Of a stretch of 60,146 nt of DNA, positions 12,539-56,975 are shown one piece after another. The DNA lies in contig CANRKS010000001.1 of the NCBI GenBank assembly GCA_947631285.1, positions 1 through 60,146 of the forward strand, written 5' to 3'. Both the position numbers and the translations under genes were made by a program. The notes beneath the pieces are model-generated. The model saw only the letters and a list, made by a program, of their open reading frames with translations. It was not told the DNA's origin and made no database searches. Position 1 is the first letter of the stretch; the number at the start of each line of letters is the position of its first letter. Source of the stretch: an uncultured Bacilli bacterium (GTDB taxonomy: Bacteria > Bacillota_I > Bacilli_A > RF39 > UBA660).

Positions 12539-12545
12539 GAGGGTT

Positions 12546-12839: not shown

Positions 12840-12852
12840 ATCTTGTTTTTTT
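12824..12852 (+). terminator. intrinsic terminator after yutD
   Basis: Stem AAAACAAGA/TCTTGTTTT with an 8-nt loop and a T run. Overlaps the stop codon. Confidence 0.65.
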
Positions 12853-12887
12853 AAAATTTAATTTAAAAAAAATTAAAAAAATAAAGA

Positions 12888-12916
12888 TTGAAAAAGAAGA
12901 CAAGGTTTGTTATAAT
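12888..12916 (+). promoter_or_regulatory. sigma-A promoter with extended -10
   Basis: TTGAAA (12888-12893), 17 nt, TGT-TATAAT (TATAAT at 12911-12916). Confidence 0.65.
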
Positions 12917-12943
12917 GATATAGTAGTGAAAGGGTTGACAAAG

Positions 12944-13681: not shown

Positions 13682-13708
13682 AGGCTGAAATATTTCAGCT
13701 TTTTTTCA
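13681..13708 (+). terminator. intrinsic terminator
   Basis: GGCTGAA-ATAT-TTCAGCT followed by a T7 run. Confidence 0.7.
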
Positions 13709-13721
13709 TATTATTTATTGT

Positions 13722-25294: not shown

Positions 25295-25308
25295 ATAGGA
25301 AGAAAAAG

Positions 25309-26091: not shown

Positions 26092-26098
26092 GGTTATT

Positions 26099-26869: not shown

Positions 26870-26890
26870 CAAAATTTATGAGGTGGAGTT

Positions 26891-27928: not shown

Positions 27929-27932
27929 AATT

Positions 27933-30465: not shown

Positions 30466-30478
30466 AGAAAGGATTAAA

Positions 30479-32269
30479 ATGAAACTTGATATAAAGAAAA
30501 TATTACTAGTAATTTATAGCTTTTTAGCAGTTTTAGGATTACAGTTCTTTATAAGAATTAGTACAAATGGATATACAGAATTTATATTTATTTTTGTCTT
30601 GGCATTATATTGTTATTACTTAAGTAAGCAAAATTATGATAAATCTCAAAAACGACTTTATATTTTTAGTGGAATTATTACTTTAATTTTAGCGATATTT
30701 TTGATTATTGGTAAAATGTTAGATTTGTACTCAACACTGTTTTATACCCTTGGGACTTTTTTAAAAATTATTCTTTTAAGTTTATTTTTGTTTCCTTTAA
30801 TTGTAAAATTTATAAGAATAGTGGAAAAGTTTAACTATTCCAAAATTAAAGCTCCTTTTAAAAATAAAAAATTCTTAAATTTAAAAATATTTATCGCTTT
30901 ATTAATTACTTCAATTATTATTTATTTAGCGATGTATCCTGGCATTTTTGGCTATGATGCAGGCTATCAAATTTATGAATTTATGTTTAAAGATGTACCC
31001 ATTGGTAATCGTTTTTCACCACTTTTATCATATGTTATGTATACATGTGTTATGCTGGGGAAAAATTTATTTAATTCTTATGAAATGGGTTTTGGATTTT
31101 TTATTTTAGGCCAAATTTTGTTTTTAGACCTTGTTTGTAGTTATTTGCTAACTTACATTTATAAAAAGACCGAAAATAAATATTTAACTTTAATTTTAAC
31201 CTTTTTCTTTATGTTTTTTCCACCCCATTTAATAATGCAAATTTCTTCTAATCCTGATGCTCCCTTTACTGGTTTCATGCTTTTATTTTTAATAAAGTTA
31301 ATGCAAATAGTAAATGATAAAGAAGATAAATTAATAAATTATTTTGTTTTAGGTATATCTTTATTTATGGCCTTTTTAATGAGAAATAATGGAATATATG
31401 TTATGGTATTTTTAATCCCTTGTCTTTTAATTTTCTTCTTTAAGTATAAAAAATTAATTTTAACTCTTTTTGTAAGTCTTGTTTTATACTGTGGTTATTC
31501 CTATATGCTTCCATCATTGGGAGTTGAAAAAGAAAATCTTATTAGAGAAATGTTAGGAATTCCTTCTCAACAAATAGCTAGAGCAGTTTTATATAATGAG
31601 GCATCTTTAAATACAAAAGATTTAGACAAGGTAAATAAGTTTTATCCTAATTATAATTTCTCTGATTATAATTATCGTTTATCAATTTCTGATCCCATAA
31701 GAGGTCAAATTGATGCTGTTTATACTAAAGAACATTTTATTGATTATTTAAAAATGTATTTAACCATTGGTCTAAAGGCTCCGCAAGAATATATTGATGC
31801 TTTTTTACTTAACACATTAGGCATTTGGTATCCTGACAAATTTTATAATGATTCAAGAATGTATCATCCATATTTAGAACTTGATATGTTAGATTCAAAA
31901 ATTTATAATGAAAGATATATTGTAATAGAAAGAAATTCTCAAATTCCTTTTGTTAAAGATTTAATATATAAAGTAATGGATGATGGCGGTTGGCAAAAAA
32001 AGATTAGTGGGGTAGGAATTTTAAGTTTATTTAATTTTGGCTTTTATTTTCTAATGTTGTTGTTTATTTTAATGTATTCATTTTATAAAAAGAATAAAAT
32101 GGTTATTTTGCCTTTAATATTTATGATTGGTTATACTTTAACCATTGTAGTTTCACCAGCAATACTATTTAGATATGTATATCCCGTTGTAATATCTAGT
32201 CCTTTATTTATAATAATGATTTTAGAATTAAATAAAAATAATAATAGAAATAAAGAAAAGAATGAATAA
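30479..32269 (+). CDS. large polytopic membrane protein (GT-C-like / DUF6020-like), unknown function
   Basis: 596 aa with >=12 hydrophobic helices and a ~170-aa soluble loop before the last helices. Confidence 0.4.
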   Translation: MKLDIKKILLVIYSFLAVLGLQFFIRISTNGYTEFIFIFVLALYCYYLSKQNYDKSQKRLYIFSGIITLILAIFLIIGKMLDLYSTLFYTLGTFLKIILLSLFLFPLIVKFIRIVEKFNYSKIKAPFKNKKFLNLKIFIALLITSIIIYLAMYPGIFGYDAGYQIYEFMFKDVPIGNRFSPLLSYVMYTCVMLGKNLFNSYEMGFGFFILGQILFLDLVCSYLLTYIYKKTENKYLTLILTFFFMFFPPHLIMQISSNPDAPFTGFMLLFLIKLMQIVNDKEDKLINYFVLGISLFMAFLMRNNGIYVMVFLIPCLLIFFFKYKKLILTLFVSLVLYCGYSYMLPSLGVEKENLIREMLGIPSQQIARAVLYNEASLNTKDLDKVNKFYPNYNFSDYNYRLSISDPIRGQIDAVYTKEHFIDYLKMYLTIGLKAPQEYIDAFLLNTLGIWYPDKFYNDSRMYHPYLELDMLDSKIYNERYIVIERNSQIPFVKDLIYKVMDDGGWQKKISGVGILSLFNFGFYFLMLLFILMYSFYKKNKMVILPLIFMIGYTLTIVVSPAILFRYVYPVVISSPLFIIMILELNKNNNRNKEKNE

Positions 32270-32302
32270 ATATCTTTTGAAAAACGTTTTTTCAAAAGAT
32301 AT
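32270..32302. terminator. perfect 15-bp hairpin (3-nt loop) splitting the glycopolymer locus
   Basis: ATATCTTTTGAAAAA-CGT-TTTTTCAAAAGATAT immediately after the stop codon. No clean T run follows. Confidence 0.5.
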
Positions 32303-32311
32303 GGGTATTTC

Positions 32312-32341
32312 TTGCTTTTCTAAAGAGATATAGGTTATAAT
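32312..32341 (+). promoter_or_regulatory. candidate sigma-A promoter for 32386-39076
   Basis: TTGCTT (32312-32317), 18 nt, TATAAT (32336-32341). Confidence 0.5.
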
Positions 32342-32385
32342 CTAATTAGTTAGTAGATTAATTTAATAATTAAGGAGTATAAATA

Positions 32386-35082
32386 ATGAAGTATATTATA
32401 AAATGTCACGAATGGATTATTAATGATAATAGAACAAAAGTAGAAACTAGTGGTAATCAAATATCAATTCAAAATACTAGTAATGAAAAAATAACTTTTA
32501 AATGTTCGCAAAAAATTAAAATTACTAATGCTAATTTAGAAAAATGTTCTATTAAAGTATTAGGAGAATGTTTTAATAGTGGAGGCTTTATCACTATAAA
32601 TGAACTGTGTAGTATTCCTATTGATAGTGAATGTGTTATGCCTATTAAAAGTGAAACTACAATGAACGTAACCTTGACAATTGCGGCCAATAGCAAAATA
32701 ATCTTAAAAGATGTTATAATTGATGTTTCTTCTGTTCCTAATTTAGTAGAAGAATTAGATAAAGAGGCAAATGTTTTAATAATTGTGCCTGATTATCCTA
32801 GTTATGTTAATTTATATAGTTGTGCTTTTGCTCATTCTAGAAATAAAGAGTATTTAAAAAAAGGACTTAAAATTCAAGTTTTTGCCACTAATGATGGTAG
32901 TTGGTATCAAGTCAAATATGATAAAGGAAATGTGCCAGTATTAAAAGGAACTTATCAAGATTTAAAAGAAATATTAGCTAAGCATCAATACCAAGTTATT
33001 GTAACCCATTTTGTGGATGAATATTTCTTTTCTATTTTTGATGGTAATATTTATGATAATCAAAAGTTGATTTTCATATGTCATGGTCCGGAAACAATTT
33101 ATCGGTTTTTAACTAATAGAATAAGGCCTTATTTTACGGCTCCTTTAAAAGAACCTATTCAAAATGAGACTTTTGATTTAAAAGATTTTTTTGTTAAAAA
33201 ATATGCTCAAAAAGATAATGTAGAGTGGGTATTTGTATCATCTTGGTTAAAAGAAATTTCGGAAAAAGAACAAAATATTGTTTTTAAACATGCAAGAGTT
33301 ATTAACAATATTATTGATGAAGACTTATTTCCTTATGTAAAGAAAAATATTGATGATCGTAAAAAAATTTTAGTCGTTCGAAAATTTGATAATATATCGC
33401 AACATTCAATTGATCAAGTTGTTTTAACTATTTTAGAATTATCAAGAAGAAGTATTTTTAAGGATTTAGAATTTGATATTTATGGTGATGGTGATTACTA
33501 TGATGAACTTGTTGAACCAATTAAGAATTTTGCTAATGTTCATTTATATAAAAGATTTGTTCCTAATGAAGAATTAAAAGATGTTTATCAAAGTCATGGT
33601 ATTATGCTTATTCCTTCTCGTCATGATACTCAAGGCGTATCTATGTGTGAAGCTGCCTCATCAGGTTGTGTTCCTGTAGGAACTAATACAACAGCTGTTC
33701 CTTATTTCATGAATGAAGAGGAAAATCATACTTTAGCTTCTTATGAAGATTATGTTGGTCTAGCAGATATTATTGAAAGATTATATAATAATCCAGAAGA
33801 ATTTTTGAAAATTAGTGCTAATATGGCTCAATTTATGAAAAATTTTAATAAAGAAAATACAGTATTTAAAGAAATTGAATTAATTAAAGAATCTTTACAA
33901 GAATATAAAAATAAAGAAGAATTCAAAACTTTAAAGCCAGCAAAGAAGCCAATTCTTACAATAGGGATTCCGGCTTATAATGTATCTAAATATATTGCTA
34001 AATGTTTAATATCTATTTTAAATGCTTATAATAGTGATAAAATAGAAATATTAGTTATTAATGATGGTTCAACTGATGATACTGTTAAAATAGTTAAAAA
34101 ATATGAGAAGAAAGCAAATGGTATTGTTAGATTAATCAATAAAGAAAATGGTGGTCATGGTTCGACAATAAACAGAGCGATAAAAGAAGCCACTGGCAAA
34201 TATTTTAGATTAATTGATGGTGATGATTGGGTTGATTCTAATAATCTAGCTAAATTAATTGAAATTATGGAAAAAGAAGATAGTGATATTATTTTAACTA
34301 AAGGCAGTTATGATTATGTAGAGGAAGCTTTATTTGAAGACATTATTAAATATGATAGTTTAAAAGAAGGGTATCAGTATAATTTTGAAGATTTGGTTTA
34401 TGATAATTATGGGTTTAGTACTTATGGTCCTTTACTTACAACAGGCAATTATAAAACGGAATTATTAAGGAAAACGGGATTTACAATAACGGAAAAGAAA
34501 CCGTATGTTGATATGGAATTTAATTCCTTTAGTATTAAATTAGTTAAAACATTAACTTATTATAATTTAGATATTTATCGTTATTTAATTGGGCGAGTAG
34601 GTCAAACAATATCACCAGAATATTGGAAAGGCAAATATAAAGATCATGAATATATTATCTTTAATATTTTAGATAAAGTATATAATGATTCTGGTTATTC
34701 CCCTTTAAAAAGAATGTATGTATTAAAAAATATTATTTCTTCAATGGTTGATTCTCAAATATTTATGTATGATACTATTTGTAAATGGGAAGAAATAGAT
34801 GAATTTTTGGCTAAATTAAAAAAATATCCTGAAGCTTATGATTATAGTATGAAATTCATTGAAAAAAAAGATGGTAATTGTCGGTTAATTTTGCATTATT
34901 ATAAAAATTGGTTAAGATTGCATCGTAAAACTCCAATTATTATTCCGGAAAAAAGGGAAAAATTAAGTGATGTCAAAGAAGAACCAGTTAAAAGAAGTTT
35001 TAAAGGTCAAATAAAAAGAGTTATTAAAGCTATTATGCCATATGGTTTATTGGTATTTATAAGAAGATGGCGGGAAAAATAA
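32386..35082 (+). CDS. three-part glycosyltransferase: N-terminal beta-rich module + GT4 domain + GT2 domain
   Basis: 898 aa. GT4: [29 protein letters not shown]2: [55 protein letters not shown]. Confidence 0.75.
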
Positions 35083-35104
35083 TAATATAATTAAGGAGAT
35101 TAAG

Positions 35105-36664
35105 ATGAAAAAGAAAGTGATAATTATTGGGGCAGGTCCCGCTGGTTTAACGGCCGGATATACGCTTCTTAAAAAAAGTAAAGATTATGATGTAACTATT
35201 TTAGAAGAAACCAAAGAAATTGGTGGTATTTCGAGAACAGTTAAATATAAGGGAAACCGAATGGATATTGGTGGGCATCGCTTTTTCTCTAAAGATGATG
35301 ATGTTATTAAATTTTGGGAAGAAGTAATGCCAACGCAAGGTAAACCTTCTTATGATGATAAAAAATTAAAGAGAAGTAAAAATTTAGCGAAGAAAGGTCC
35401 TGATCCCGAAAAAGAAGATCGTGTAATGTTAGTTCGAAATCGGGTATCTAGAATTTATTATTTAAAGAAATTTTTTGATTATCCGATTAGTATGAAATGG
35501 CAAACATTTAAAAATATGGGATTTCTTAGAACTTTTGAAGCTGGTTGTAGTTATTTAAAATCAACGGTTATTAAAAAAGAAGAAGACTCTTTAGAAAATT
35601 TTTATATTAATCGGTTTGGTAAAAAATTATATAGTATGTTTTTTGAAAAATATACCGAAAAATTATGGGGAAGACATCCTTCACAAATATCAGCTGACTG
35701 GGGTAGTCAACGGGTAAAAGGTTTATCAATTTCTGCCGTCATTAAAGATATGTTTAAAAAGTTTTTCCACCTTAATAGTAAGGAAGTGGAAACTTCTTTA
35801 ATTGAAGAATTTAAATATCCTAAATATGGTCCTGGTGAATTATGGGAAATGGTAGCCAAAGATTTTGCAAAAATGGGAGGTCATCTTCTAAAAGATCATA
35901 AAGTTATCAAAATTAACCAAAAGAATAATCAAATTAATTATTTAATTTGTGATGTCTTAGGAAAAGAAGAAAAAATAGAAGGCGATATATTTATTTCTAG
36001 TATGCCTTTAAAAGATTTAATTGAAGGATTAAATGATGTGCCTAAAGATATCTATAAAATTGCCACCGGTCTTCCTTATAGAGATTTTGTTACAGTAGGA
36101 CTTTTAGTTAAAAAGTTAAATTTAAAAAATGAAACTAATATTAAAACAATCAATAATATTGTTCCTGATTGTTGGATATATGTGCAAGAACCAGATGTTA
36201 AATTAGGTAGAATTCAAATCTTTAATAATTGGAGTCCTTATATGGTTAAAGATATTAATAAAACGGTTTGGATTGGCTTAGAGTATTTCTGTAATGAAGG
36301 CGATGAATTTTGGAACTTAAGTGATAAAAAATGTATTGATTTTGCTAAGGATGAATTAATTAAAATGGGTATAATTACGGAAGCTGATGTGTTAGATTTT
36401 CATCGTGAAAAAGTAAAAAAAGCTTATCCTGCTTATTTTGATACCTATAAAGATATTAATGAATTAATTCGTTATTTAAATAAAATTAATAATCTTTATT
36501 GCGTTGGTAGAAATGGTCAACATCGTTATAATAATATGGATCATTCAATGGTAACTTCTTTTGAAACAGTTAATAATATTTTAAATAATGTTAAAAATAA
36601 AGATAATATTTGGAATGTTAATACAGAAAAAGAATTCCATGAAGAGAAAAAAGTAACGGAATAA
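35105..36664 (+). CDS. NAD(P)/FAD-dependent oxidoreductase, Glf/amine-oxidase-like
   Basis: [42 protein letters not shown]. 519 aa. Confidence 0.55.
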
Positions 36665-36677
36665 ATTAAGGTATAAG

Positions 36678-37787
36678 ATGAAAAAAATAAAAGTAATGAG
36701 TATTTTTGGAACTAGACCAGAAGCTATTAAAATGGCACCCCTAGTTAAAGAGTTAGAAAAAAGAGAAGAAATCGAAAGCATTGTTTGTGTAACAGCTCAA
36801 CATAGAGAAATGCTTGATCAAGTTTTAAAGACGTTTAATATTAAACCTGATTATGATTTAAATATTATGCAAAAGGGTCAAACTTTAGGGGACATTACAA
36901 TTAAAGCGTTAAAGGGATTAGAAAAAATCATAAAAGAAGTAAAACCAGATTTAGTATTAGTTCATGGTGATACGACAACAGCTTTTGCCGGATCCTTAGC
37001 GGCGTTTTATAATGCAGTTTCCATTGGACATGTGGAAGCAGGACTTAGAACTAATGACAAATATAGTCCTTATCCAGAAGAAATGAATCGACAAATGATT
37101 GATCGGATGAGTGATATGTTATTTGCCCCGACTGATGTTAGTAAGAATAATTTACTTAAAGAAAACATAAAAGCTGAAAATATTTATGTTACGGGTAATA
37201 CAGTGATTGATGCATTAAAAACAACGGTCAAAGAAAATTATCATCATCCCGAGTTAGAATGGATTAAAGATAAAGAAAGAATGATTTTACTTACTTGTCA
37301 TCGAAGAGAGAATTTAGGAAAACCCATGGAGAGAATCTTTAAAGGTATAAAAAAAGTGGTGGAAGAAGTTCCTGATGTTAAAGTAATATATCCTATCCAT
37401 TTAAATCCTTTAGTAAGAGATACTGCGAATAAAATCTTTAAGGGAATAGATCGCGTTAAATTAATTGAGCCTTTAGAAGTTCATGACATGCATAATTTTC
37501 AAAATAAAGCTTACCTTGTTTTAACTGATTCAGGAGGATTGCAAGAAGAAGCACCATCTTTAGGAAAGCCTGTCTTAGTATTAAGAGATACTACTGAAAG
37601 GCCAGAGGGAATAAAGGCTGGTACTTTAAAATTAGTTGGTACTAGGGAAGATGCTATATATAAAGAGTGCAAGAAGTTATTAAAAGATTCTAAAGAATAT
37701 GAAAAGATGAGTAAAGCTTCTAACCCTTATGGTGATGGTAAGGCTAGTCTTTATATTGTTGATGCAATTATAAAGAGATTTAAATAG
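36678..37787 (+). CDS. mnaA: UDP-N-acetylglucosamine 2-epimerase (non-hydrolysing)
   Basis: IFGTRPEAIKMAPL, VHGDTTTAF, GHVEAGLRT, TDSGGLQEEAPSLGKPVLVLR. Confidence 0.9.
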   Translation: MKKIKVMSIFGTRPEAIKMAPLVKELEKREEIESIVCVTAQHREMLDQVLKTFNIKPDYDLNIMQKGQTLGDITIKALKGLEKIIKEVKPDLVLVHGDTTTAFAGSLAAFYNAVSIGHVEAGLRTNDKYSPYPEEMNRQMIDRMSDMLFAPTDVSKNNLLKENIKAENIYVTGNTVIDALKTTVKENYHHPELEWIKDKERMILLTCHRRENLGKPMERIFKGIKKVVEEVPDVKVIYPIHLNPLVRDTANKIFKGIDRVKLIEPLEVHDMHNFQNKAYLVLTDSGGLQEEAPSLGKPVLVLRDTTERPEGIKAGTLKLVGTREDAIYKECKKLLKDSKEYEKMSKASNPYGDGKASLYIVDAIIKRFK

Positions 37788-37813
37788 CTATTTTAGCTTG
37801 AAAGAAGGTTAGA

Positions 37814-39076
37814 ATGAAAGATAAAATATCTAAGTTAGTTAATGTCTATAAAAAGTATGGTTTATGGGGATTTATTAAAAAATGCTATCGCTATATTGTT
37901 GCTAATTATTTAGATAAAATTAGTTTGCTGGTTTTTCTAAATCCATATAGATATCATAAAATAATTAAAACATCTTTAGAAGGACAATATGATAGAGTAA
38001 TATTATGGCGAAGTAGTTTTGGCTATAATGTACCTCTTTTTCAAAGACCTCAACATATCGCTAATAATTTAGTTAAAAATAATTCTTTAGTTTTTTATGA
38101 AGTAACAACGATGACGGATAAAGTTAAAACAATAAAAAAACATCATGATAATTTATATTTATTTAATTTTAATAATATTTTGCTCAATAGAATATTAATG
38201 AAGGAACTAGCTAAAATAAATAAGCCAAAATATATTCAACTTTACTGTACTGATTGGAAATTAACGGTGCAAAATATTGAAGATTATTTAAAAAAAGGAT
38301 TTAAATTAATCTATGAATATGTCGATCATTTAAGTCCTATTTTAGCCGGCACCAAAGACTTACCTAAAAACATTCAAGATAAATTTGATTATGTTATGCA
38401 TAATCCTTCTGTTTATGTAGTTGTTACAGCTGAAGAATTAAAAAAAGATGTGGAAAAAAGACGAGGTAAAGAAAATTTAGCTTATTCTACGAATGGAGTT
38501 GATTATGCTTTCTTTCAAAAGATGGAAGATTATCCTTTAGAAAAAGAATACTTAGATATTATTAATAATGGTAAGATAAATATATGTTATTATGGAGCTT
38601 TAGCTAAATGGTTTGATTATAATTTAATTAAAAAAGTAGCTAAAACCGATAAATATAATATAATTTTATTTGGTTTAAAATATGATGATTCATATGATTT
38701 AAATAAAATGGATGAAGTAAAAAATGTTTATTTTTTAGGTGCTAAAGATTATCAAGTATTAAAATATTATGCTAAAATGAATGATATTTTAATTATTCCT
38801 TTTTTAATTAATGATATTACTAAATCAACTAGTCCAGTTAAAATATTTGAATATATGGCTTTATCATTGCCTATTGTAACGACTGATTTATTGGAATGTC
38901 ATAAATATAAGTCAGTTTTAATTGGGAGTGAAAAAGAGTTTTTAAAAAAATTAGAAGAAGCTTATAAATTAAAAAATGATCAAAAATATAAAAAATTATT
39001 ACAAAAAGAAGCAAAGGAAAATGATTGGCAAAATAAAGCTAAAATTATTGTTGATTTAATTAAAAAAGATGAGTAA
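37814..39076 (+). CDS. putative GT4-type glycosyltransferase
   Basis: C-terminal Rossmann half with the E-x7-E-like SPVKIFEYMALSLPIV. 420 aa. Confidence 0.45.
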   Translation: MKDKISKLVNVYKKYGLWGFIKKCYRYIVANYLDKISLLVFLNPYRYHKIIKTSLEGQYDRVILWRSSFGYNVPLFQRPQHIANNLVKNNSLVFYEVTTMTDKVKTIKKHHDNLYLFNFNNILLNRILMKELAKINKPKYIQLYCTDWKLTVQNIEDYLKKGFKLIYEYVDHLSPILAGTKDLPKNIQDKFDYVMHNPSVYVVVTAEELKKDVEKRRGKENLAYSTNGVDYAFFQKMEDYPLEKEYLDIINNGKINICYYGALAKWFDYNLIKKVAKTDKYNIILFGLKYDDSYDLNKMDEVKNVYFLGAKDYQVLKYYAKMNDILIIPFLINDITKSTSPVKIFEYMALSLPIVTTDLLECHKYKSVLIGSEKEFLKKLEEAYKLKNDQKYKKLLQKEAKENDWQNKAKIIVDLIKKDE

Positions 39077-39124: not shown

Positions 39125-39367
39125 ATGAATTTAAATGATTCTTTTTTTAATAAGGTCGAAAAAAAGACGAAAGTAGATAAAAATACTATTATTAGTTTGG
39201 CTCAAAAATTACAAAATGGTAATATGAAAGATGAGAAAACTTTAAGAGAGGTAATTGATACATTAAGCCAGATGACAGGAAAAAAAGTAAGTAAAGAACA
39301 GAGTGACAAAATAATTTCTAAAGTAGTAGGGGGAGAAGTCCCAAAAAATATTGATAAGATGTTTTAA
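39125..39367 (+). CDS. spoVIF: stage VI sporulation protein F
   Basis: 80 aa. SFFNKVEKKTKV...LAQKLQNGNMKDEKTLREVI...KVSKEQSDKII parallels B. subtilis SpoVIF (YjcC). Confidence 0.7.
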   Translation: MNLNDSFFNKVEKKTKVDKNTIISLAQKLQNGNMKDEKTLREVIDTLSQMTGKKVSKEQSDKIISKVVGGEVPKNIDKMF

Positions 39368-39431
39368 AATATTGCAATATCTTGTTTTTTGTGATAATCT
39401 AATATAGTAAGAATAAAGAGGTGTAACCTAA

Positions 39432-40355
39432 ATGGAAGAATTTTTAAATAAATTATATAATTACGAATATTTTGGAACTTATTTGATGATTTCAATCGCG
39501 GTTTTAGTTTTGCTCTTTATTATCATTTTAATTTTTGGCAAAAAAGATCAAAAAAATAGAGAAATTGAAGCAACTAAAAAGTTACAACAATTAAATCCAG
39601 AAACAGGAAATCAAGTTAGTAATGAAAATAGTGAACTTAATGCCTTTAAGGAAACTAGCACGCCTCTTAGTGTAGAAGCTCCCGTTAATGCTATGAGTCT
39701 TAATGAAGCTCCGCTTAATCCTGAAGTTAAATCAAATGATATTTTAGAACCGAAACTAGAAAACGAAACAATTGTGGTTCCTAATCCTAGTAATAATCAA
39801 ATTATTCCAGATACCATAAATACTCCTCTTAATGAAATGTCAGTTAATAATATGAATGTTGATAATATGACTTCTCTTAATTCTCCAGTTAATAATCAAG
39901 AATTTATTAATCCTGTTATGCCAAATGAAAATTTAGTAAGCGAAGAAAGAAGAGAAGAAGAAAAACCGGTATTAGAAAAAGTAGAAGAACAACCATTTAG
40001 CTTTAGTAATGTCGTCGTTGAACCTATAACTCCAGTTATTCCAAAAGAAGATGTTAGTCCATATGAAGCTAAAGAAGTAAGTGTTCCAACTTTTAATTTT
40101 AACGATATTGTTTCGAATGAACCCTTAAAAAATCCTGAACCCGTAAATTCAGCAAAAGATATATTTAGTTCAGTTTATGCTCCAAATAGCGAGGTTAAAG
40201 AGCCATCACCTGTAGAGATGCCAATTAAAAAAGAAGAAGATGAAGATATTGAATTACCAACATTAAAAAAAGAAGTAGAAGAAATTGAAAAGCCAATTTT
40301 AAATGATTATAATTTAAATGATTTAGCTGGCGAATCATATGATATTAATGAATAA
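39432..40355 (+). CDS. bitopic membrane protein with long N/P/E-rich extracellular region
   Basis: TM segment YLMISIAVLVLLFIIILIF, then ~260 aa of low complexity (PLNEMSVNNMNVDNMTSLNSPVNNQEFINPVMPNEN...). Confidence 0.45.
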   Translation: MEEFLNKLYNYEYFGTYLMISIAVLVLLFIIILIFGKKDQKNREIEATKKLQQLNPETGNQVSNENSELNAFKETSTPLSVEAPVNAMSLNEAPLNPEVKSNDILEPKLENETIVVPNPSNNQIIPDTINTPLNEMSVNNMNVDNMTSLNSPVNNQEFINPVMPNENLVSEERREEEKPVLEKVEEQPFSFSNVVVEPITPVIPKEDVSPYEAKEVSVPTFNFNDIVSNEPLKNPEPVNSAKDIFSSVYAPNSEVKEPSPVEMPIKKEEDEDIELPTLKKEVEEIEKPILNDYNLNDLAGESYDINE

Positions 40356-40377
40356 TGAGCTTGATGCTCATTTTTTT
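40354..40377 (+). terminator. intrinsic terminator
   Basis: AATGAGC-TTGAT-GCTCATT followed by a T7 run. Confidence 0.7.
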
Positions 40378-40389
40378 CTGCTTATTCAT

Positions 40390-40418
40390 TTACTAAGTAG
40401 CATTATCCGTGATATAAT
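40390..40418 (+). promoter_or_regulatory. promoter with extended -10 for 40446..44384
   Basis: TGa-TATAAT (TATAAT at 40413-40418). The -35 (TTACTA) is weak. Confidence 0.5.
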
Positions 40419-40445
40419 TAGTTTAGATATAGTACGGAGTGTAGG

Positions 40446-43400
40446 ATGATGACAAAACTATTTAAAATATTAAATGTAGTAATCATAACAATGTTTTTAA
40501 ATATATTTGTAGTTAGGGCTGATGGCTGTAGTAACGTAAGAATTGTTACGGATGGAGTAGGTAGTCCAACTAGTTTTTCTTATGGTTATCAATCTGGCAG
40601 TGTTCGTTATAAAATTTATGATTATCGTGTTAGAGTTAATGGAGGTGCTAGTATCAGTGCCTATTGTCATAATCCTGGTATTCATGCTTGGGAAAAAACT
40701 AACGAAGTACTAAATTGTGAAAGAGAATTATTTGATCCAACGAATAATAGTGTTAAGCAAAATATTTATGATTCAGGGATCATATATCTTTTAAAATCTG
40801 CTCCTAATAAATGGTTAGCCATAAATTTATATCAATTATTATTTTCCGATAGAGTTGATGTTAGATATGCGGAAACTGATATGTATTCTTCTCAACTATA
40901 TTATTTAGAAAATCAAATCAATAAATATTTAGATGAAAAAAATGAAAATAATAAAGCCAAAAGATTAAGAGAAAAAGTAAGTGCCTTAAAGAAAACATAT
41001 GGCTCTAGTATAGGGAAAAAATATAGTGGCGTCAGTAGATATAATGATTCTAATGGTGTAGATAGCGCTATGGATTATGTTTTAAATGCCCTTGATGTTG
41101 CCATTGATTACGCAAATAATGGAGGACCAACTGTCAAAATAGGTAATCCAACCAGAAAGAAAGCTAATACGGAAACAGAGTTAAGATCAACTTTTACTTA
41201 TAAAATAGATATTAAAGAGTTTGCTGAAAATAGTGAAATTTATTTATCTTATAATTGTACAAGAGGCTGTAATATTGCTGATGTTAAATTTTATTTAAAT
41301 AATGAAGTAAAAAGTGCTTCTGAATTAAGTAATACAAATTTAGTCAAATTAGTTCAAAATAATAGTTCAAGTAAAAAATATTCAGGAACGGTTGAATTTG
41401 TTATTGAGTATAGTGGTCCAGTTAGAGAAGATTGTGATGAAACTAGATATAAAATAAGTTTAAAATATCGAGATGAAGCTTTAGCTGCCGAAGCATATGA
41501 GGTTGATGAGTGTTCTAATGTTGAAAAGTGCCAACGACTTTATGTTTTAGCAGGGAATAATACCCAAAATTATCGAACAACGGATATAGAAAATCAATTT
41601 CAATTATGTTCTACTTCTAAAGAAGTTGGAGAATGTAAGACTTATGTTGGTGATGCTTCTTGTGTCCCTTGTGAAGAAAATGATAATAAAGTAGAAATAA
41701 AAGAAGGTTATGATACGGAAGATGTATGTACTGAACCAACTGAAGATGATTTAAACATTAAAAAATGTGTTGCTAGTAATAGTGCCAGAGATACATCGGG
41801 AAATACTCATAAAAGTAATGATTATACAAGTGAAGCAGGCAGTGGCAATTTTGCTGGTACTGATGGAGGTAATGGTATTTATTGTAAAGAAGATTATACT
41901 TTAACCTTACCAGGTTCAAGAAAAGTAGATGCCGGAAGATATTTTGTCCTTCGTTCACAAATTGAAGGAACTAAGTCTTGTTATTCAACTAGAATAAAAG
42001 ATAATACTGCGACTAATTCGTCTGTCAAAGCGGCAGCTCAAAGTACAGTGAATGTCTATAAAAACTATGCCAAAGCCAAAGCTTTACTAGAGTGCTTAAA
42101 TGGAGGCGGAAGTGGTAGATGCCATGTGTCTTCGTTTTATACCAGCGGCGGTGTCTGCCGAACAAGACCCGTAACAAGGAAACGTTATGCTCAAAAAGAA
42201 GAAGATGAACCGTGTCCTGAAGGTTATACAGAAACTACGTTTGCTGGCAAGCCTACTTGTGAACAAGAGTATACAGACATTGATAGAATTTATTATTTAG
42301 TACCTGGTATTGATGTTTATTGGGATTATACATATTATAATGGTAACTCTTGCACACCAGTAACAGAAAATGCTTTTAAAACTTGGACAACTAGTAATCG
42401 TGGTAGATGGCTATGTTTAAATGATGATGAGCTAGCTGATTCTAAATTTATGGAAGAACTTTATAATAGTGTAGATGAATTAACTCCGTCCTTAGAGCGA
42501 GAATTAGGAGAAGAAGCTAATTTTACTTGTAACTGTACTGGCGATCCTTCTAAAGGTCCCGTTGATTGCCCTTGTTCTGGCCGGGGAGCCACTGGATTTA
42601 CCGCAGGTCTTGGTACAGGAGGAATGTGGTCAATTTTAAAAAATTATAATAAAGTCATTGGTTTTTATACTGGCGGCTCTGATATTGGTGGAGGTACGGT
42701 AACTGAAGGAGGCGGAGGTTACTCTGGAACTGGTGAAGGATCTTACGGAGTTACTTTAAATCCTAATCCATTTGGAGGCTGGCAAGTTGGTTATAACTTT
42801 AATCCAGAAATGCATTTTTGGTATCAAGAAAGATATATGAAAAATGTTTTAACTGATACTTTAGACCGTTATGATGAATCTATTGAAAGATTGGCGCCTT
42901 TATATTGTACGGGTGATGTTTCTGATGACTATGAAGAATGTTCTGGTCTTGGAGGATGGAAAAAATCTTTAAGCTTAGGGGCAATCGGAGATACAAGTGC
43001 CGATATTTATCAAGACCGAGCTTGTGCTTGTACAACAGAAGGATGTAAATGGTATACCTATGCTATTGCTAATGTTAAATATATTAAACAAACTGCTAAA
43101 GCTGAAGCTAAATTTGTAACACCTACCCAATTTTATAACATTTATCCAACCGGAGCAGTTCCTGTCGGATTACCAGGCTTAGAAATTGATAATGCGACAG
43201 TAATGGAAAATGGCTTACCAGTTGAGTTAGGTAGTGAAAGTGGGGGAAAAGTTTACTTATTATGGTATGAAAATTTAGGTGAATACTATAATGGTGATAC
43301 TTTAGGAAGAATTTGGGGTAATTATAATAGTGTGGTAGCTACAACCTTACAAGCGAGTGAAGCATGTCGAACTGAGAGATCTTCAATTATTTTTGAAGAT

Positions 43401-44384
43401 GAAACAAATGATGTTTACCATGATGAAGGACTTTATAAATGCCGTTATGATGTTAACGAATGTAGTCAATGTAAAGAAGAAGTGGACAATTATTGTGACC
43501 CAGCTTGTCCAAATGATCCTGATTGTCCAAGTTCTGGCAGTTGTTCTAGTGTAAGTGATGGTATGTGCAAAGCTGGTTGTCCTGCCGATCCGGATTGTTA
43601 TTGTGCATCTTGCCCTCCGGATATCAAAAACAGATGTGCTGTTTTAAAAGATGAAAATGGAGGAAGTCATTATTATGATAGAACCGGTAAAGAAACTAGT
43701 ATGGGAACATATTATTCTCAATGTTGTCCAAATGGTAGATGCCAAGTAAATTGTAAGAGTTGCTTGTTTGATGGTACTGATCTAAAAGCTAGTTATAGAC
43801 AAATAACAAATGAGGACTTAAACCCTAATGATCGTTCTTTAGGTACTAACTGGGCTTGGGATAATAATATCAATACGGCCATTGAATTAAAAGCTTATGT
43901 AACAACTAAAGAAATTGAAGAAAATAGTAATTCAATTTATGAAGTTGATTTTGAAAATACTTCAGATGAACAAGATTTTGCCATGCAAGTTACGATGGAT
44001 CCAAAAGCTGTAAATTGGATTAGAGATTATAATCAAACGGCTTCGGGAGGATATCTAAATAATACTTTAGAGTGCTATGATCTAGAAGTTGGGGAAAATA
44101 TTTACGATAATGTTTATTGCTATAGTACTTTCATTGATGAAATGATTAATGATAATGTTGGTAATATTAAAATTGCAGGAGCTGAAAGACCAATGGATGA
44201 AAATGGCCGAAAAGCTTATAGTAATGGTTATTTTATAAGTTGGCAAACTGATAATATTAATACCCAAGAATGGGAAGTAAGAACCGAAAGAGGAATTGAA
44301 TACTATACATCTAATTTTGGTATGGTATACGATAAGACAGCAAATAAAGATGTAGATTATCGGGTTGGACCTTCTTGGAAATAA
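40446..44384 (+). CDS. giant secreted cysteine-rich protein, unknown function
   Basis: 1312 aa with signal peptide MMTKLFKILNVVIITMFLNIFVVRADG. I hand-counted ~53 Cys. It has a Gly-rich segment and a 109-aa stretch with 18 Cys that includes CPNDPDC and CPADPDC. There is no LPXTG motif and no C-terminal TM segment. Confidence 0.6.
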   Translation: MMTKLFKILNVVIITMFLNIFVVRADGCSNVRIVTDGVGSPTSFSYGYQSGSVRYKIYDYRVRVNGGASISAYCHNPGIHAWEKTNEVLNCERELFDPTNNSVKQNIYDSGIIYLLKSAPNKWLAINLYQLLFSDRVDVRYAETDMYSSQLYYLENQINKYLDEKNENNKAKRLREKVSALKKTYGSSIGKKYSGVSRYNDSNGVDSAMDYVLNALDVAIDYANNGGPTVKIGNPTRKKANTETELRSTFTYKIDIKEFAENSEIYLSYNCTRGCNIADVKFYLNNEVKSASELSNTNLVKLVQNNSSSKKYSGTVEFVIEYSGPVREDCDETRYKISLKYRDEALAAEAYEVDECSNVEKCQRLYVLAGNNTQNYRTTDIENQFQLCSTSKEVGECKTYVGDASCVPCEENDNKVEIKEGYDTEDVCTEPTEDDLNIKKCVASNSARDTSGNTHKSNDYTSEAGSGNFAGTDGGNGIYCKEDYTLTLPGSRKVDAGRYFVLRSQIEGTKSCYSTRIKDNTATNSSVKAAAQSTVNVYKNYAKAKALLECLNGGGSGRCHVSSFYTSGGVCRTRPVTRKRYAQKEEDEPCPEGYTETTFAGKPTCEQEYTDIDRIYYLVPGIDVYWDYTYYNGNSCTPVTENAFKTWTTSNRGRWLCLNDDELADSKFMEELYNSVDELTPSLERELGEEANFTCNCTGDPSKGPVDCPCSGRGATGFTAGLGTGGMWSILKNYNKVIGFYTGGSDIGGGTVTEGGGGYSGTGEGSYGVTLNPNPFGGWQVGYNFNPEMHFWYQERYMKNVLTDTLDRYDESIERLAPLYCTGDVSDDYEECSGLGGWKKSLSLGAIGDTSADIYQDRACACTTEGCKWYTYAIANVKYIKQTAKAEAKFVTPTQFYNIYPTGAVPVGLPGLEIDNATVMENGLPVELGSESGGKVYLLWYENLGEYYNGDTLGRIWGNYNSVVATTLQASEACRTERSSIIFEDETNDVYHDEGLYKCRYDVNECSQCKEEVDNYCDPACPNDPDCPSSGSCSSVSDGMCKAGCPADPDCYCASCPPDIKNRCAVLKDENGGSHYYDRTGKETSMGTYYSQCCPNGRCQVNCKSCLFDGTDLKASYRQITNEDLNPNDRSLGTNWAWDNNINTAIELKAYVTTKEIEENSNSIYEVDFENTSDEQDFAMQVTMDPKAVNWIRDYNQTASGGYLNNTLECYDLEVGENIYDNVYCYSTFIDEMINDNVGNIKIAGAERPMDENGRKAYSNGYFISWQTDNINTQEWEVRTERGIEYYTSNFGMVYDKTANKDVDYRVGPSWK

Positions 44385-44465: not shown

Positions 44466-44822
44466 ATGAATAGAAACAAAGATATCTTAAAATATTGTCC
44501 TAATTATTATACTATAATCAATTTTGATTTTAAGGAAAGTGATTTAGTAAGTGATAGATTAATAAAAGTTTATAAAAGCTATATCTTTTCTATCGATGAA
44601 AATAATTTAGATGATATTAAAAGAGTCCAAGAGTTAGATAGAGTTTTAGCTAGCTACATTAAGGATTATTTATTTAGAAGCACTCTGCAAAAAGAAATTG
44701 TAACTGTAAAAATTCAAAAAGATACTAATATTTTAAGAACTTTAGTAGATATAATTATTAAAATATTTACTAATTATGAAGAATATACAACGAGAAAAAT
44801 TTATATAAGTAAATGGATTTAA
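44466..44822 (+). CDS. hypothetical protein
   Basis: 118 aa. No recognisable motif. Confidence 0.4.
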   Translation: MNRNKDILKYCPNYYTIINFDFKESDLVSDRLIKVYKSYIFSIDENNLDDIKRVQELDRVLASYIKDYLFRSTLQKEIVTVKIQKDTNILRTLVDIIIKIFTNYEEYTTRKIYISKWI

Positions 44823-48443: not shown

Positions 48444-50369
48444 ATGTTAGAAAATATAGAGCAAACTTTAAATAAATATTATTTTGAGTTAGAAAGTAAA
48501 AAAAGAGAATATATAGAAATCTATGAAGGCGCTAGGGAAGGGATAGCTTATACGCAAAAGCTTTTAAAAATGACTTATGAAGAAGCAGAAAAAGAAAAAA
48601 GAACCATAAGTATTTATGATCTCGCTAGAATTTTAAGATTTGCTAGTTTAACTATGTGGGAAAAAATGCAAGTGGTTATTCATTTTTTAAAGTTAAATAT
48701 TTATGCGGGTATTATGGAAGAAGAATATGCTCTTGATAAGAATATAATCTGTGCTTATCCCTTTAAAACAATGAATAAGGAAAGAATAAAAAATCTTATA
48801 GAAAGTGGCGACTTTTTAAAATTAGTTGAAGCAAAAGCAAGAGAATTATCCCCTAATGAAAGATTGGAGCAAGAAGAAATTAAAGAAGCACTTAAAGAAT
48901 CAGGGAGAAATATTCTTAATACAGCTTTAGCTCACCGGCAAATAAAAGAACATTTTTTTGACAAATATCCTTATTTAACTAAAGAAGATATCGATATATT
49001 TGTAGAGTGTTTAGCTTCTTTAGGAATGTCTTTAGATATATGTGAAGGTTTTAAAGTTTTTTTAAATCAAGAATGGGAGAATCAAAAATTAAGAGTTCCT
49101 TCTTATGAGGATAGTTTATTGAGTAAATACTATAATGGTTTAAAACAAGCATCTAAAATATATGAAAAGAGTGTAGCCAATTTTGAAAATACTTTATATA
49201 AAATGGCAACTAAGCAAGTATATCGAAAATTAGCATCAGGCAATAGACGCATTACATCTAAAATGGCGAGTGTTATTGCTTCAGGTACAGCTGATTTTGA
49301 TGATTATATTACAGACGCGGAAAAAGCTATTGCTTCTATTTCCGTCTATGGAGGAGGAGTTTACAATTGGCTTTCTTATCCAGAGATGAGTAGATTTAGT
49401 AATTTATTAATCGCTGATTTTGCCTCATTAAGTGAAACAATTAGTCAAGCATCCTTTACCAAAAGTGAACTTTCCGATTTTATCTTTCTAATTATTAAAA
49501 GAGATATTGAACTAGGTATATTAGATGAAAAAGGAAGTTTACAATCAGATGAATTTCTTAGCTATGAAGATGACGTCCTTAGTGCTTGCCGGGAAGGCCG
49601 ATTTTGGGAAATGATTTTAAAAAATGAAAATCATCATGAAGTAGCGAAGTCTCATCTATATTGTCCCCTTGATTGTGAAAAAGATGATCTAAAATGGCCT
49701 TTACTTCAAGAACAAATTAAAATTATTGCGGAAATATATTTTGCTAAAGATAAACTTACGAAAGAAGATATTACGAAAATTTGTGAATCTCTAACATCTT
49801 TAGGCTTTTCGAAAGCTCATGTTGATGCCGTCGAATCAACTTTAGTTAAAAGAAATTTACGGAAGGAAAAAGAGAAAAAAGAAGATAGCATTACTATTCA
49901 AAAGTCTTTAATTACATTAAGACCTCTTATTAGTAAGAAAGAGTATAACCGCCTTTGGAATGAATTAAATGAATGCTATAATTTTGATCAAATGATCCCT
50001 TTTAGATATTTAAGTGAAGAAGAAATAATTACTTGTGTTTATAAGTTAAAATATTTAAATTTTGCGGATGCTGTTATTTTAAAATTTTTAGAAACTTCCC
50101 TTAAGTATAATAAAACAAATTCTTTTAATGCGATCGTTAAGTATAAAGATACTTATGCCAAAATTAAATATTTTTTAGAAAATTATCCTGAAGATGAAAA
50201 AATAAAAGAAATTGCTTTAGAACTAGATGAAGCATTAAAAAAAGCCGGCATTAGTAGTGATGAAGATTTTGAATTTTATAAAGAATATATTGATATGGAG
50301 CTAGCTTCTTTTACAGATGCCACTTTTCATAACTATGAATATGAAATAGAAATGGCTAAACTTCTTTAA
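48444..50369 (+). CDS. hypothetical all-helical protein with an internally repeated module
   Basis: 641 aa. Repeats YLTKEDIDIFVECLASLGMS, KLTKEDITKICESLTSLGFS and LSEEEIITCVYKLKYLNFA. Confidence 0.45.
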   Translation: MLENIEQTLNKYYFELESKKREYIEIYEGAREGIAYTQKLLKMTYEEAEKEKRTISIYDLARILRFASLTMWEKMQVVIHFLKLNIYAGIMEEEYALDKNIICAYPFKTMNKERIKNLIESGDFLKLVEAKARELSPNERLEQEEIKEALKESGRNILNTALAHRQIKEHFFDKYPYLTKEDIDIFVECLASLGMSLDICEGFKVFLNQEWENQKLRVPSYEDSLLSKYYNGLKQASKIYEKSVANFENTLYKMATKQVYRKLASGNRRITSKMASVIASGTADFDDYITDAEKAIASISVYGGGVYNWLSYPEMSRFSNLLIADFASLSETISQASFTKSELSDFIFLIIKRDIELGILDEKGSLQSDEFLSYEDDVLSACREGRFWEMILKNENHHEVAKSHLYCPLDCEKDDLKWPLLQEQIKIIAEIYFAKDKLTKEDITKICESLTSLGFSKAHVDAVESTLVKRNLRKEKEKKEDSITIQKSLITLRPLISKKEYNRLWNELNECYNFDQMIPFRYLSEEEIITCVYKLKYLNFADAVILKFLETSLKYNKTNSFNAIVKYKDTYAKIKYFLENYPEDEKIKEIALELDEALKKAGISSDEDFEFYKEYIDMELASFTDATFHNYEYEIEMAKLL

Positions 50370-56744: not shown

Positions 56745-56975
56745 ATGAATTTAAAGGCCGGGAATAAGACAAGTAAATTAAAGAGCTTTTAAAAGAGAGT
56801 TAGTGGTTGGTGAAAACTAATAAAAGAATTTAATTTATATCACTTAGGAGCTGTCCTTGGGAAAGAAAGTACTGAGGATTCGCAGCGATGCGTTAAAATA
56901 AGAAGATGAATAAAGTTCATAAATTAAGGTGGTACCACGGGAATACTCGTCCTTAAGTTTATGAACTTTTTTTAA
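56745..56975 (+). promoter_or_regulatory. T-box riboswitch leader, isoleucine specifier
   Basis: AGAGA element near 56803. Candidate specifier ATC-A at 56839-56842. T-box sequence AATTAAGGTGGTACCACGG at 56922-56940. Terminator arms at 56912-56929 and 56951-56969 (one bulge) plus a T7 run. Confidence 0.8.

Follow-up and report, generated by a model that had tools for sequence, protein, structure and literature searches.

The 60,146-nucleotide (nt) stretch of DNA analysed here, referred to as the window, belongs to an uncultured Bacilli bacterium (assembly GCA_947631285.1, contig CANRKS010000001.1) and contains an intact open reading frame (ORF) at 40446..44384 on the forward (+) strand, whose product, a giant protein of 1312 amino acids (aa), is the subject of this article. 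An earlier note made from the sequence of the window had described a signal peptide, about 53 cysteines, and neither a sortase motif nor a transmembrane (TM) anchor, a description that is confirmed by counting, motif searches, and KD19 hydrophobicity scans. The Sec signal peptide, as read from the sequence, occupies residues 1-25 (40446..40520, +) and consists of MMTK followed by a hydrophobic core and a predicted cleavage site between VRA and DG. Its KD19 maximum is 2.36, while the remainder of the protein peaks at 0.73 after residue 40; the motif and KD19 scans detected neither an LPXTG-like motif nor a second hydrophobic segment past the signal peptide. The number of cysteines is exactly 53, corresponding to 4.0% of the residues compared with 1.2% across the other ORFs of at least 200 aa in the window, and the probability of obtaining 53 or more at this background rate is 8e-14. 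Attachment as a lipoprotein through C28, which follows the signal peptide, was considered and rejected, as the local sequence A-D-G-C (A-G-S-C in relatives) is unlike a lipobox and C28 is conserved in only 34% of the deep family described below.

The giant gene is located between spoVIF (39125..39367; PF14069, E 1e-20) and a germinant-receptor operon whose GerA, GerAC, and spore-permease genes lie downstream on the minus strand, as had been stated previously, and this arrangement is kept in six related loci from metagenome-assembled genomes (MAGs) or metagenomes. Upstream, a hairpin followed by a T-run at 40354..40372 (+), detected by a terminator scan, ends the preceding gene and insulates the giant gene. 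It is followed by a putative sigma-A-type promoter at 40389..40418 (+), composed of TTTACT, an 18-nt spacer, and the extended -10 element TG-A-TATAAT, and by the ribosome-binding site GGAG at 40436..40439 (+). The claim that the gene has its own extended -10 promoter is therefore borne out: the motif TG[GA]TA[TC]AAT occurs at an equal distance from the ribosome-binding site in the orthologous loci L004, L005, L006, and L008, and the positions of both the hairpin and the extended -10 element are kept in all five orthologous loci, the intergenic DNA being otherwise diverged.

Beyond its N-terminal ~390 residues, the giant protein is organised into alternating conserved and hypervariable regions, all encoded on the + strand. 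A conserved Cys-containing core at residues ~395-560 (41628..42125), with the pattern YCKEDY..LPG..G.YF.L..I.G.K.CY, is the most conserved stretch of the N half among 143 sequences. Hypervariable segment 1 (residues ~560-740, 42123..42665), which includes a Gly-rich stretch and appears mostly as gaps in the deep alignment, separates this core from a conserved module at residues ~770-1000 (42753..43445) in which W779, Y793, P925, G945, and G954-R955 are near-invariant. A cysteine-knot region together with hypervariable segment 2 (residues ~1000-1110, 43443..43775) holds 15 Cys per 100 residues and the repeats CPNDPDC and CPADPDC, and the C-terminal domain (residues ~1110-1312, 43773..44384), the most conserved part of the family, ends in GPSWK-COOH (nt 44367..44381) directly before the stop codon. 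Searches of Pfam and NCBIfam returned zero matches for the giant protein, whether whole or as eight segments, and a sequence search of the PDB found no match for the protein alone or for a 40-sequence profile.

Orthologs of the giant gene are intact in every case, and its ratio of nonsynonymous to synonymous substitution rates (omega) is 0.16-0.23 for unsaturated pairs, compared with 0.02-0.10 for its neighbours; amino acid identity across orthologs is 46-59% versus 65-94% for the neighbours. The gene is under purifying selection and yet evolves several-fold faster than the genes around it. Both hypervariable segments reach local nonsynonymous rates (dN) of 0.4-0.94 between orthologs that are otherwise 78% identical. 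Segment 1 shows only 3-7% identity among orthologs, with a dN of 0.4-0.64 and an omega of about 0.4-0.56 between L005 and L006, and in segment 2 residues 1007-1078 have a dN of 0.94 and an omega of 0.79. The G+C content of the hypervariable segments is locally 0.35-0.39, in comparison with about 0.26 for the window.

The distribution of the protein in related genomes, which the earlier note had proposed to measure, turned out to be much wider than the first searches indicated. A word-indexed homolog search gave three relatives at 46-59% identity, its repetition with a 40-sequence profile added none, and a genome scan found five loci with the giant gene, all in rabbit-gut MAGs labelled 'uncultured Bacilli'. 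This apparent rarity arose because the word index underestimates the family: an exhaustive phmmer search of 1.84 billion cluster representatives recovered 311 proteins at E <= 1e-3 and 78 at E <= 1e-30, so that, with clusters defined at 50% identity, the family comprises at least 311 clusters and is not nearly unique. Nearly all members are 1000-1900 aa long, all carry a signal peptide, and the median Cys content is 3.4%; none of the ten family clusters looked up carries a name. In a deep alignment of 143 full-length relatives, with identity down to ~26%, residues ~395-560, ~770-1000, and ~1110-1312 are conserved, most of all the C-terminal ~200 residues, and the C-terminal domain is also the best-matching stretch in most of the 311 family matches. 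The sequence GP[SA][WY][KR] stands at the extreme C-terminus in 139 of the 143, GPSWK being the commonest form, and G1308 and P1309 are conserved in 100%, W1311 in 95%, and K1312 in 90% of them. All 143 lack an LPXTG motif within the final 80 residues and any hydrophobic segment beyond residue 45, and the sorting signal of the sortase-anchored class, LPXTG with a TM helix and a basic tail, is lacking in all of them.

The principal functional clue lies in the N-terminal part, where residues ~26-390 (40521..41615, +) are predicted to form a Class II-like thioester domain (TED), as suggested by Foldseek, by the family consensus against Pfam, by motifs common to the plasmid adhesin TIEpLS20, and by the order of structural elements in an AlphaFold2 (AF2) model. 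In the predicted layout, N-terminal strands lead into a helical bundle, and a beta-sandwich inserted at residues ~229-342 (nt 41130..41471) is followed by the strand bearing the Gln. In a TED, as defined in PMC6194298, a strand carries the Cys of a [YFL]C-phi-zeta motif and helix alpha-2 carries TQxx-phi-W, and the fold combines a beta-barrel, a bundle of three helices, an inserted sandwich of seven strands, and a slipknot. The family motifs [YF]-C-[LRIM]-[DN]-P, T-x-phi-A-phi-R, and x-Q-R-[FYL]-phi-phi correspond to the TED motifs [YFL]C-phi-zeta, TQxx-phi-W, and phi-Q-zeta-phi-phi, respectively, and the first of them is composed in the family of Y (105) or F (28), C, L (47), R (38), I (17), or M (10), D (87) or N (38), and P. 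In the window protein, the predicted thioester-forming Cys74 (codon 40665..40667, +; motif AYCHNPG) ends a predicted strand of the model (E43-49) and is present in 143 of 143 members, while the predicted partner Gln363 (codon 41532..41534, +; motif CQRLY), found in 138 of 143, is part of the family pattern x-Q-R-[F/Y/L]-[Y/V/I]-[V/I] and follows the predicted sandwich at 229-342. C74 (100%) and Q363 (96.5%) are essentially the only universal positions in the first 400 residues, where only 115, A125, 127, C330, and C397 are otherwise conserved at 80% or more. Q130 and Q150 were considered as the thioester or TQ-motif Gln and discarded, as they are not conserved in the deep family.

Profile comparisons point in the same direction. 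The N-terminal consensus of the deep family matches the Pfam TED model (PF08341; the NCBIfam counterpart is TIGR03934) at 25.5 bits (gathering cutoff 22, E 1.9e-5) as its sole match, with the alignment starting exactly at the Cys motif, and the positive control TIEpLS20 scores 24.6 bits against the same model; among 40 single members, one matches TED (E 0.0015) and one matches TQXA_dom (E 0.011). The motifs VYCIDPD, YDDGVKAILYYGF, KTYVALNNW, and SYQRLM of TIEpLS20, whose bond residues are Cys68 and Gln256 (PMC8092201), have the family counterparts AYC[LI]DPG, YDAGIxxILxxGY, ATSIALRAY, and xQR[FL]Y. The AF2 model of residues 26-700, built from only four sequences of close homologs before the deep family was known, is confident only at residues ~155-345, a helical bundle followed by a beta-sandwich, and presents strands, the Cys at a strand end, helices, and the beta-sandwich in this order; its top Foldseek match among PDB entries, for a model that is poor overall, is the Class II TED of EfmTIE86 from E. 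faecium (6fwy; E 4e-5, probability 0.99), followed by Cna and pilin sandwiches.

A further line of evidence comes from the parity of the cysteines. The mature Cys number, which ranges from about 30 to 62, is odd in 123 of the 143 members (p = 2.8e-19), which would imply one Cys outside disulfides, as expected for a thioester Cys with the remainder paired. Taken together, these data make it very likely that the family carries a TED, and the window protein itself probably forms the C74-Q363 thioester bond. The unpaired Cys also admits another interpretation, namely a toxin-like effector or an enzyme of the cysteine-protease type with the conserved Cys as catalytic nucleophile, which would suit a large secreted protein, yet alongside C74 the first 400 residues hold no conserved His or Asp, Gln363 is the only other universal residue, and no peptidase, toxin, or enzyme family is matched, making this the least credible of the explanations weighed here and one that can practically be set aside. 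The earlier note had been unable to name any domain, and it had named clear homology to a characterised family as grounds for withdrawing its proposal; such homology is now partly in evidence, for residues ~26-390, and the remaining ~900 residues are as yet without assignment, the modules at ~395-1312 giving no Pfam, NCBIfam, or PDB match even as consensus or profile and the AF2 model of the C half (pLDDT, the predicted local distance difference test, of 28.6) being unusable, so that it provides no fold for residues 400-1312.

Genomic context provides the second main clue, as all seven sampled members outside the window clade (P0018, P0017, P0024, P0049, P0010, P0009, and P0147) are encoded in one conserved operon. 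The first gene, whose product is a secreted protein of ~236 aa that has four conserved Cys and is anchored by a C-terminal TM segment, abuts or overlaps the giant gene, which is followed by genes for DUF5411 (with a pilin-like N-terminus), a CpaB/RcpC-like protein, an ATPase, two membrane proteins, two ~80-aa and two ~150-aa pilin-like proteins, a ~320-aa cytoplasmic protein, and a VirB2-like protein. The ATPase matches PF00437 in all seven loci and the NCBIfam families VirB11, TrbB, and TadA at E 1e-35 to 4e-28. The CpaB-like protein reaches TIGR03177 at E 2.6e-11 with 43 bits, below the cutoff of 71, and its PF16976 match is weak. The two membrane proteins (301 aa and 262 aa) each have four hydrophobic segments and are not detectably paralogous to each other (hhalign probability 1.2%), and homology to p38 and p39 of pLS20 was sought for them and proved undetectable. 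The pilin-like proteins carry leaders of the form [ML][KR]E[AST]xG followed by a hydrophobic helix, conserved across loci. No VirB4, VirD4, relaxase, or VirB6 gene is present in or beside any of the seven operons, whose wider flanks consist of ordinary chromosomal genes (UvrB, Metallophos, Rce1-like, tRNA synthetases). The operon can be described as a Tad-like type-IV-filament machine, with 'Tad-like' denoting resemblance and not membership.

Several additional observations were made on these operons. Genes for an Rce1-like (CPBP) protease and a metallophosphoesterase lie divergently right upstream of the operon in five loci (L009 7673..9177; L012, L013, L014, and L016), and a processing role of the CPBP protease is conceivable; the loci contain no prepilin peptidase, and the C-terminal GPSWK is strict. 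Insertions between the platform and pilin genes or upstream of the operon (L012 17580..18410; L016 15139..16461 and 3692..5745) contain a Bro-N protein, AAA_14/DUF4143, and an AbiEi/AbiEii toxin-antitoxin pair, and in L014 the pilin genes are not adjacent to the rest of the operon.

The distal part of this same operon is found at the start of the window (340..3279), at 47-80% identity to the operon of L009. It encodes two small pilin-like proteins of 87 and 85 aa (340..603 and 607..864, +) in which a [ML]KE[AS]TG leader comes with a hydrophobic helix and a head rich in Cys, which match the L009 operon proteins in tblastn (E 3e-24 and 7e-26) and weakly match an archaeal type IV pilin N-terminus (E 0.04), and two minor-pilin-like proteins of 168 and 144 aa (877..1383 and 1391..1825, +) with the leader [MV]REA.G and a hydrophobic helix, which are 57% and 47% identical to L009 proteins. 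These are followed by a 323-aa cytoplasmic protein with no TM segment and no Pfam match (1844..2815, +), 80% identical to its L009 homolog and possibly occupying a TadZ-like position in the operon, and by the last gene, for a 123-aa VirB2-like T4SS pilin (2908..3279, +) that is 64% identical to its L009 homolog and matches PF18895 (T4SS_pilin) at E 4.3e-5 over model positions 4-71 of 71, with 23.9 bits against a cutoff of 26.6. The proximal operon, with the ATPase, the CpaB-like protein, and presumably its own giant gene, must lie beyond the 5' end of the contig. Directly after the operon, 3345..3647 on the minus strand encodes a 100-aa protein with a Q/N/Y/P-rich N half and a short coiled-coil C half, which gives a weak XhlA-like match (E 0.02).

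The relationship between the two genomic settings is clarified by the MAG GCA_947627925.1, which holds both types: P0010 as an operon copy (CANQXW010000029), 41% identical to the giant protein of the window, and P0003 as a spoVIF/gerA copy (CANQXW010000001). The co-occurrence of both copies in one MAG indicates that the window clade arose by duplication and relocation. This clade consists of seven sequences in four sub-lineages and has kept the full architecture, C74, Q363, and GPSWK, and the giant gene of the window is a displaced, lineage-specific paralog of the operon gene. Its relocation, its own promoter, and its faster evolution suggest in turn that it is probably an alternative, separately regulated adhesin for the same machine, of which 340..3279 encodes the distal part. 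Of the roles named in the earlier note, adhesin and appendage component gain support from the TED and the pilus-like operon, and those of spore-surface protein and toxin-like effector do not.

On the basis of these findings, we favour with moderate confidence, taken as a whole, the view that the product of 40446..44384 is a Sec-secreted, disulfide-rich thioester adhesin, serving as the displaced, alternative adhesin of a pilus-like machine. We infer that after Sec export the protein would fold with about 26 disulfides, and that C74 and Q363 would form an internal thioester within a divergent Class II-type TED in the N-terminal ~365 residues. The reaction of a TED thioester with an amine of the target to form a covalent bond is established for SfbI and other TEDs, and the thioester of the giant protein would similarly react with an amine on the target surface, leading to covalent attachment. 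The conserved C-terminal modules ending in GPSWK would most likely dock the adhesin onto the filament or machine, perhaps at its tip, by analogy with PilY1 and the Kil tips, and the TED and the hypervariable segments would face the target. The ancestral home of the family would be the second gene of the type-IV-filament-like (Tad/VirB11-type) operon, whose machine would comprise a CpaB-like protein, a TadA-class ATPase, two polytopic membrane proteins, four to five pilin-like proteins, and a VirB2-like pilin; the paralog in the window would have moved between the spoVIF pair and the gerA operon, gaining its own sigma-A-type promoter.

A number of observations weigh against this view. With respect to the TED, neither the window protein nor the consensus of its clade reaches any TED model in Pfam or NCBIfam scans; the residue following the Cys, hydrophobic in the TED motif, is His or Arg in the window clade; Cys and Gln are 289 residues apart (family median 316), although solved structures of Class II TEDs show a spacing of 171-204; the Foldseek match was obtained with an AF2 model of mean pLDDT 44.5, at a TM-score of 0.28; and when the family is aligned by hhalign to TIEpLS20 as a single sequence, the probability is only 39%. 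Additionally, TQxx-phi-W is not reproduced, as the family shows T-x-phi-A-phi-R and the window protein KWLAIN on a predicted helix, with Gln and Trp absent. The Gln and Trp of this motif are not essential for formation of the thioester bond (PMC6194298), and their absence therefore weakens TED membership without excluding it. With respect to the machine, the 301-aa and 262-aa proteins have no TadB/TadC (T2SSF) homology in Pfam or NCBIfam, the canonical Flp motif G/xxxxEY is absent, the pilin-like helices being without EY, and no prepilin peptidase (Peptidase_A24) appears in any of the seven loci tables. The giant gene of the window also lies 37 kb from the operon remnant without an adjacent 236-aa partner or DUF5411 gene, and extracellular disulfides in a strict anaerobe would need an oxidising system.

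In the explanation that fares best among the alternatives, the protein acts independently of the machine as an autonomous secreted or cell-surface thioester adhesin, released or non-covalently held at the wall, and binds host mucus, epithelium, or food particles. A gene with its own promoter and an upstream terminator, 37 kb from the remnant and lacking the adjacent partner genes, would be in keeping with such autonomy, and TIEpLS20 is likewise without a known anchoring signal. The complete C-terminal modules and the GPSWK end, retained just as in operon members, would however be unexpected if docking had been lost, and the operon is present in the same genome; we consider this explanation unlikely.

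A somewhat different emphasis would be placed on the plasmid relatives if the giant protein were a cell-cell adhesin for mating or aggregation as in pLS20, with bacteria and not a host as its target, and if its module, though chromosomal, were related to conjugation operons of the pLS20 type in their 5' part. TIEpLS20 is needed for efficient conjugation (PMC8092201), the gene order of the chromosomal operon matches pLS20 genes 34-45, with an ATPase that is 35% identical (E 3e-44), a VirB2-like T4SS_pilin ends the operon, and one family member weakly matches conju_CD1108. The seven operons are nevertheless without VirB4, VirD4, relaxase, and VirB6, their upstream flanks are conserved chromosomal genes, and the giant size, disulfide richness, and C-terminal modules of the family are missing from TIEpLS20, which leaves this a rather improbable account.

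The possibility of a spore-surface protein of the coat, exosporium, or an appendage, made in sporulation and cross-linked through its Cys, was drawn by the earlier note only from the neighbouring genes. High Cys content is known in some coat and exosporium proteins, and the position of the giant gene between spoVIF and the gerA operon is kept in six related loci. However, all sampled relatives outside the window clade, including the closest paralogs, are encoded in pilus-like operons without sporulation genes, and the promoter is sigma-A-like with an extended -10 element. Sec export is not the usual route for proteins that the mother cell contributes to the coat or exosporium, whereas the giant protein has a Sec signal peptide. 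Furthermore, the pair formed by spoVIF and the adjacent gene for a 307-aa protein exists elsewhere without the giant gene, and the spoVIF/gerA neighbourhood therefore came from an insertion. Neither the giant protein nor any of the 40 relatives scanned shows a Pfam or NCBIfam match that would indicate homology to a coat or exosporium family, and a role at the spore surface is accordingly judged very improbable.

The 307-aa protein itself (39432..40355, +) is a single-pass membrane protein with one TM helix and an acidic tail rich in N, P, and E (together 37%), and it had been put forward as a possible anchor of the giant protein, a proposal that did not survive comparison. Its family is wider, with more than 161 clusters; in distant genomes its relatives again stand directly after spoVIF, followed by topoisomerase IV or DUF285 and no giant gene; a terminator separates the two genes in the window; and the charges flanking the TM helix (-2 on the N flank and +3 on the post-TM flank, with six K/R) indicate, under the positive-inside rule, that the acidic tail is cytoplasmic. 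Homology between the 307-aa protein and the 236-aa partner of the operon was also sought, and the comparison shows none. The product of 39432..40355 is thus a conserved spoVIF partner outside the system of the giant protein. The succession of spoVIF and a ~270-320-aa single-pass membrane protein extends across many Bacillota (window 39125..40355; L017 6679..7948; L018 6676..7831). The ends of this family are conserved, with MEEFLNKLYNYEYFGTY at the N-terminus and DIELPTLKK..NDYNLNDL near the C-terminus, and its acidic N/P/E-rich middle varies; no Pfam family covers it, and it may represent an unrecognised sporulation protein.

Further genes of the window were also noted. A 118-aa protein encoded downstream (44466..44822) is 86% conserved and cytoplasmic, and a comparison with DUF5411 shows no homology. 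Farther downstream, a 641-aa ORF at 48444..50369 has no family match and shares only 37% identity with the ortholog at the matching position in L002 and L008; the genes flanking it are 64-90% identical, and its product is therefore a second fast-evolving protein near the giant gene. Just upstream of spoVIF, a long run of glycosyltransferase (GT) and cell-envelope polysaccharide genes (~25300..39076) includes an 898-aa GT1/GT2 fusion, DUF6020, an amine oxidase-like protein, a UDP-GlcNAc 2-epimerase, and a TuaH-like GT, and L001 has a different gene set in the matching region. An ordinary T-box leader (RF00230, 123.7 bits) at 56751..56957 precedes the isoleucyl-tRNA synthetase gene at 56990..60058.

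To our knowledge, TEDs are the only known means of covalent bacterial attachment to targets, and the examples we know of so far occur in sortase-anchored, Cys-poor fibrillar adhesins, in sortase pili, and in one plasmid adhesin, TIEpLS20. In the present family, which has no wall anchor, a TED occurs together with a strict GPSWK end, about 26 predicted disulfides, and a genomic link to an operon of the Tad/VirB11 type; domains of this type are known, and the architecture and genomic context are new, as no description of a giant, disulfide-rich, sortase-free TED architecture ending in GPSWK and linked to such an operon was found in the literature searched. If the operon link is functional, it would represent a new mode by which uncultured gut Firmicutes display covalent adhesins. 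The odd-cysteine rule, additionally, offers a simple signature for finding other thioester proteins in Cys-rich contexts. As a more speculative and decidedly tentative extension, gut Bacilli might possess an unrecognised type-IV-filament-like machine, reduced in pLS20-type modules, with a giant thioester cargo or tip docked via the GPSWK module and with its specificity diversified by duplication of the adhesin to other loci under separate promoters, the giant gene of the window being one of these duplicates. Were this true, covalent adhesion through thioesters would for the first time be connected with a filament system that does not depend on sortase.

Comparison with known systems places these proposals in perspective. 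The operon shares with Tad (type IVc) systems a CpaB/RcpC-like protein, an ATPase of the TadA/CpaF class, two polytopic proteins in the position of TadB/TadC, and small as well as minor-type pilins; it differs from them in that the CpaB match lies below the curated cutoff, T2SSF is missing, the leaders are of the M[KR]E[AS]xG type, no prepilin peptidase is encoded at the locus, and a VirB2-like pilin is present.

The sortase-anchored Class II thioester, isopeptide, and ester domain proteins (TIEs), represented by BaTIE (6FWV), SaTIE (6FX6), and EfmTIE86 (6FWY), have the same domain organisation as is predicted for the giant protein, with the EfmTIE86 TED as its best structural match, and in these proteins and in the family alike only Cys and Gln are universally conserved. 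Their TQxx-phi-W motif is replaced by T-x-phi-A-phi-R in the family and by KWLAIN in the window protein, which also differs from them in lacking LPXTG, any dependence on sortase, and a stalk of isopeptide or ester domains, and in being Cys-rich, whereas classical Gram-positive surface proteins are Cys-poor. Scans of the window protein, 40 relatives, and the region consensuses detected neither Cna_B nor a related Pfam stalk domain.

Among filament-tip proteins, PilY1/PilC and the Tad tip complexes (TadE/F/G; the 'Tips' of Myxococcus Kil) invite comparison by analogy only, as large, Sec-secreted proteins encoded near minor pilins. PilY1 has a length of ~1100-1200 aa, and proteins of the PilY1/PilC type would resemble the giant protein functionally in combining a conserved C-terminal docking part with a variable N-terminal adhesive part. 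There is no sequence relationship or detectable fold relationship, since neither the giant protein nor any of the 40 relatives scanned matches the PilC/PilY1 family, and the Kil/Tad tips are true minor pilins with prepilin leaders, unlike the giant protein with its ordinary signal peptide. Kil pili employ multiple interchangeable tip sets per machine (PMC12075869), a situation paralleled by the operon copy and the displaced paralog of the giant gene.

The closest counterpart is TIEpLS20, the Class II TED adhesin encoded by gene 34 of pLS20 from Bacillus subtilis. In both proteins, a signal peptide is followed by a TED, the Cys motifs (VYCIDPD / AYC[LI]DPG) and Gln motifs (YQRLM / xQR[FL]Y) are near-identical, YDxG(I/V)xxIL is common to both, and LPXTG, a lipobox, and any known wall-binding module are lacking. 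TIEpLS20 is, however, a protein of 767 aa with one Cys, a CnaB-type stalk, and a Cys-to-Gln spacing of 188, compared with 1312 aa, 53 Cys, no CnaB, and a spacing of 289 in the window protein, and it belongs to a conjugation operon with VirB4, VirD4, VirB6, and relaxase, whereas the window gene is chromosomal and has no conjugation genes. Its C-terminal part was examined as a counterpart of the C-terminal modules of the family and shows no similarity to them. At the operon level, pLS20 and the chromosomal operon both combine a TED adhesin with small (membrane) proteins, a TadA/VirB11-type ATPase at the identity given above, two membrane proteins, and small hydrophobic proteins; the matching gene order in pLS20 is located at 6477..14265 of NC_015148.1 (L020). 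The pLS20 module genes have been annotated as 'putative VirB11' and 'unknown', and Gram-positive conjugative elements are said to make no pili (PMC8557374), while the mode of display of TIEpLS20 is an acknowledged open question (PMC8092201). The pLS20 module may be Tad-like and may display TIEpLS20. The operon link of the family, if functional, would also give a concrete hypothesis, open to testing, for what the 'VirB11' module of pLS20-family plasmids does, and the filament-like machine outlined above, if real, would answer how TIEpLS20 is displayed.

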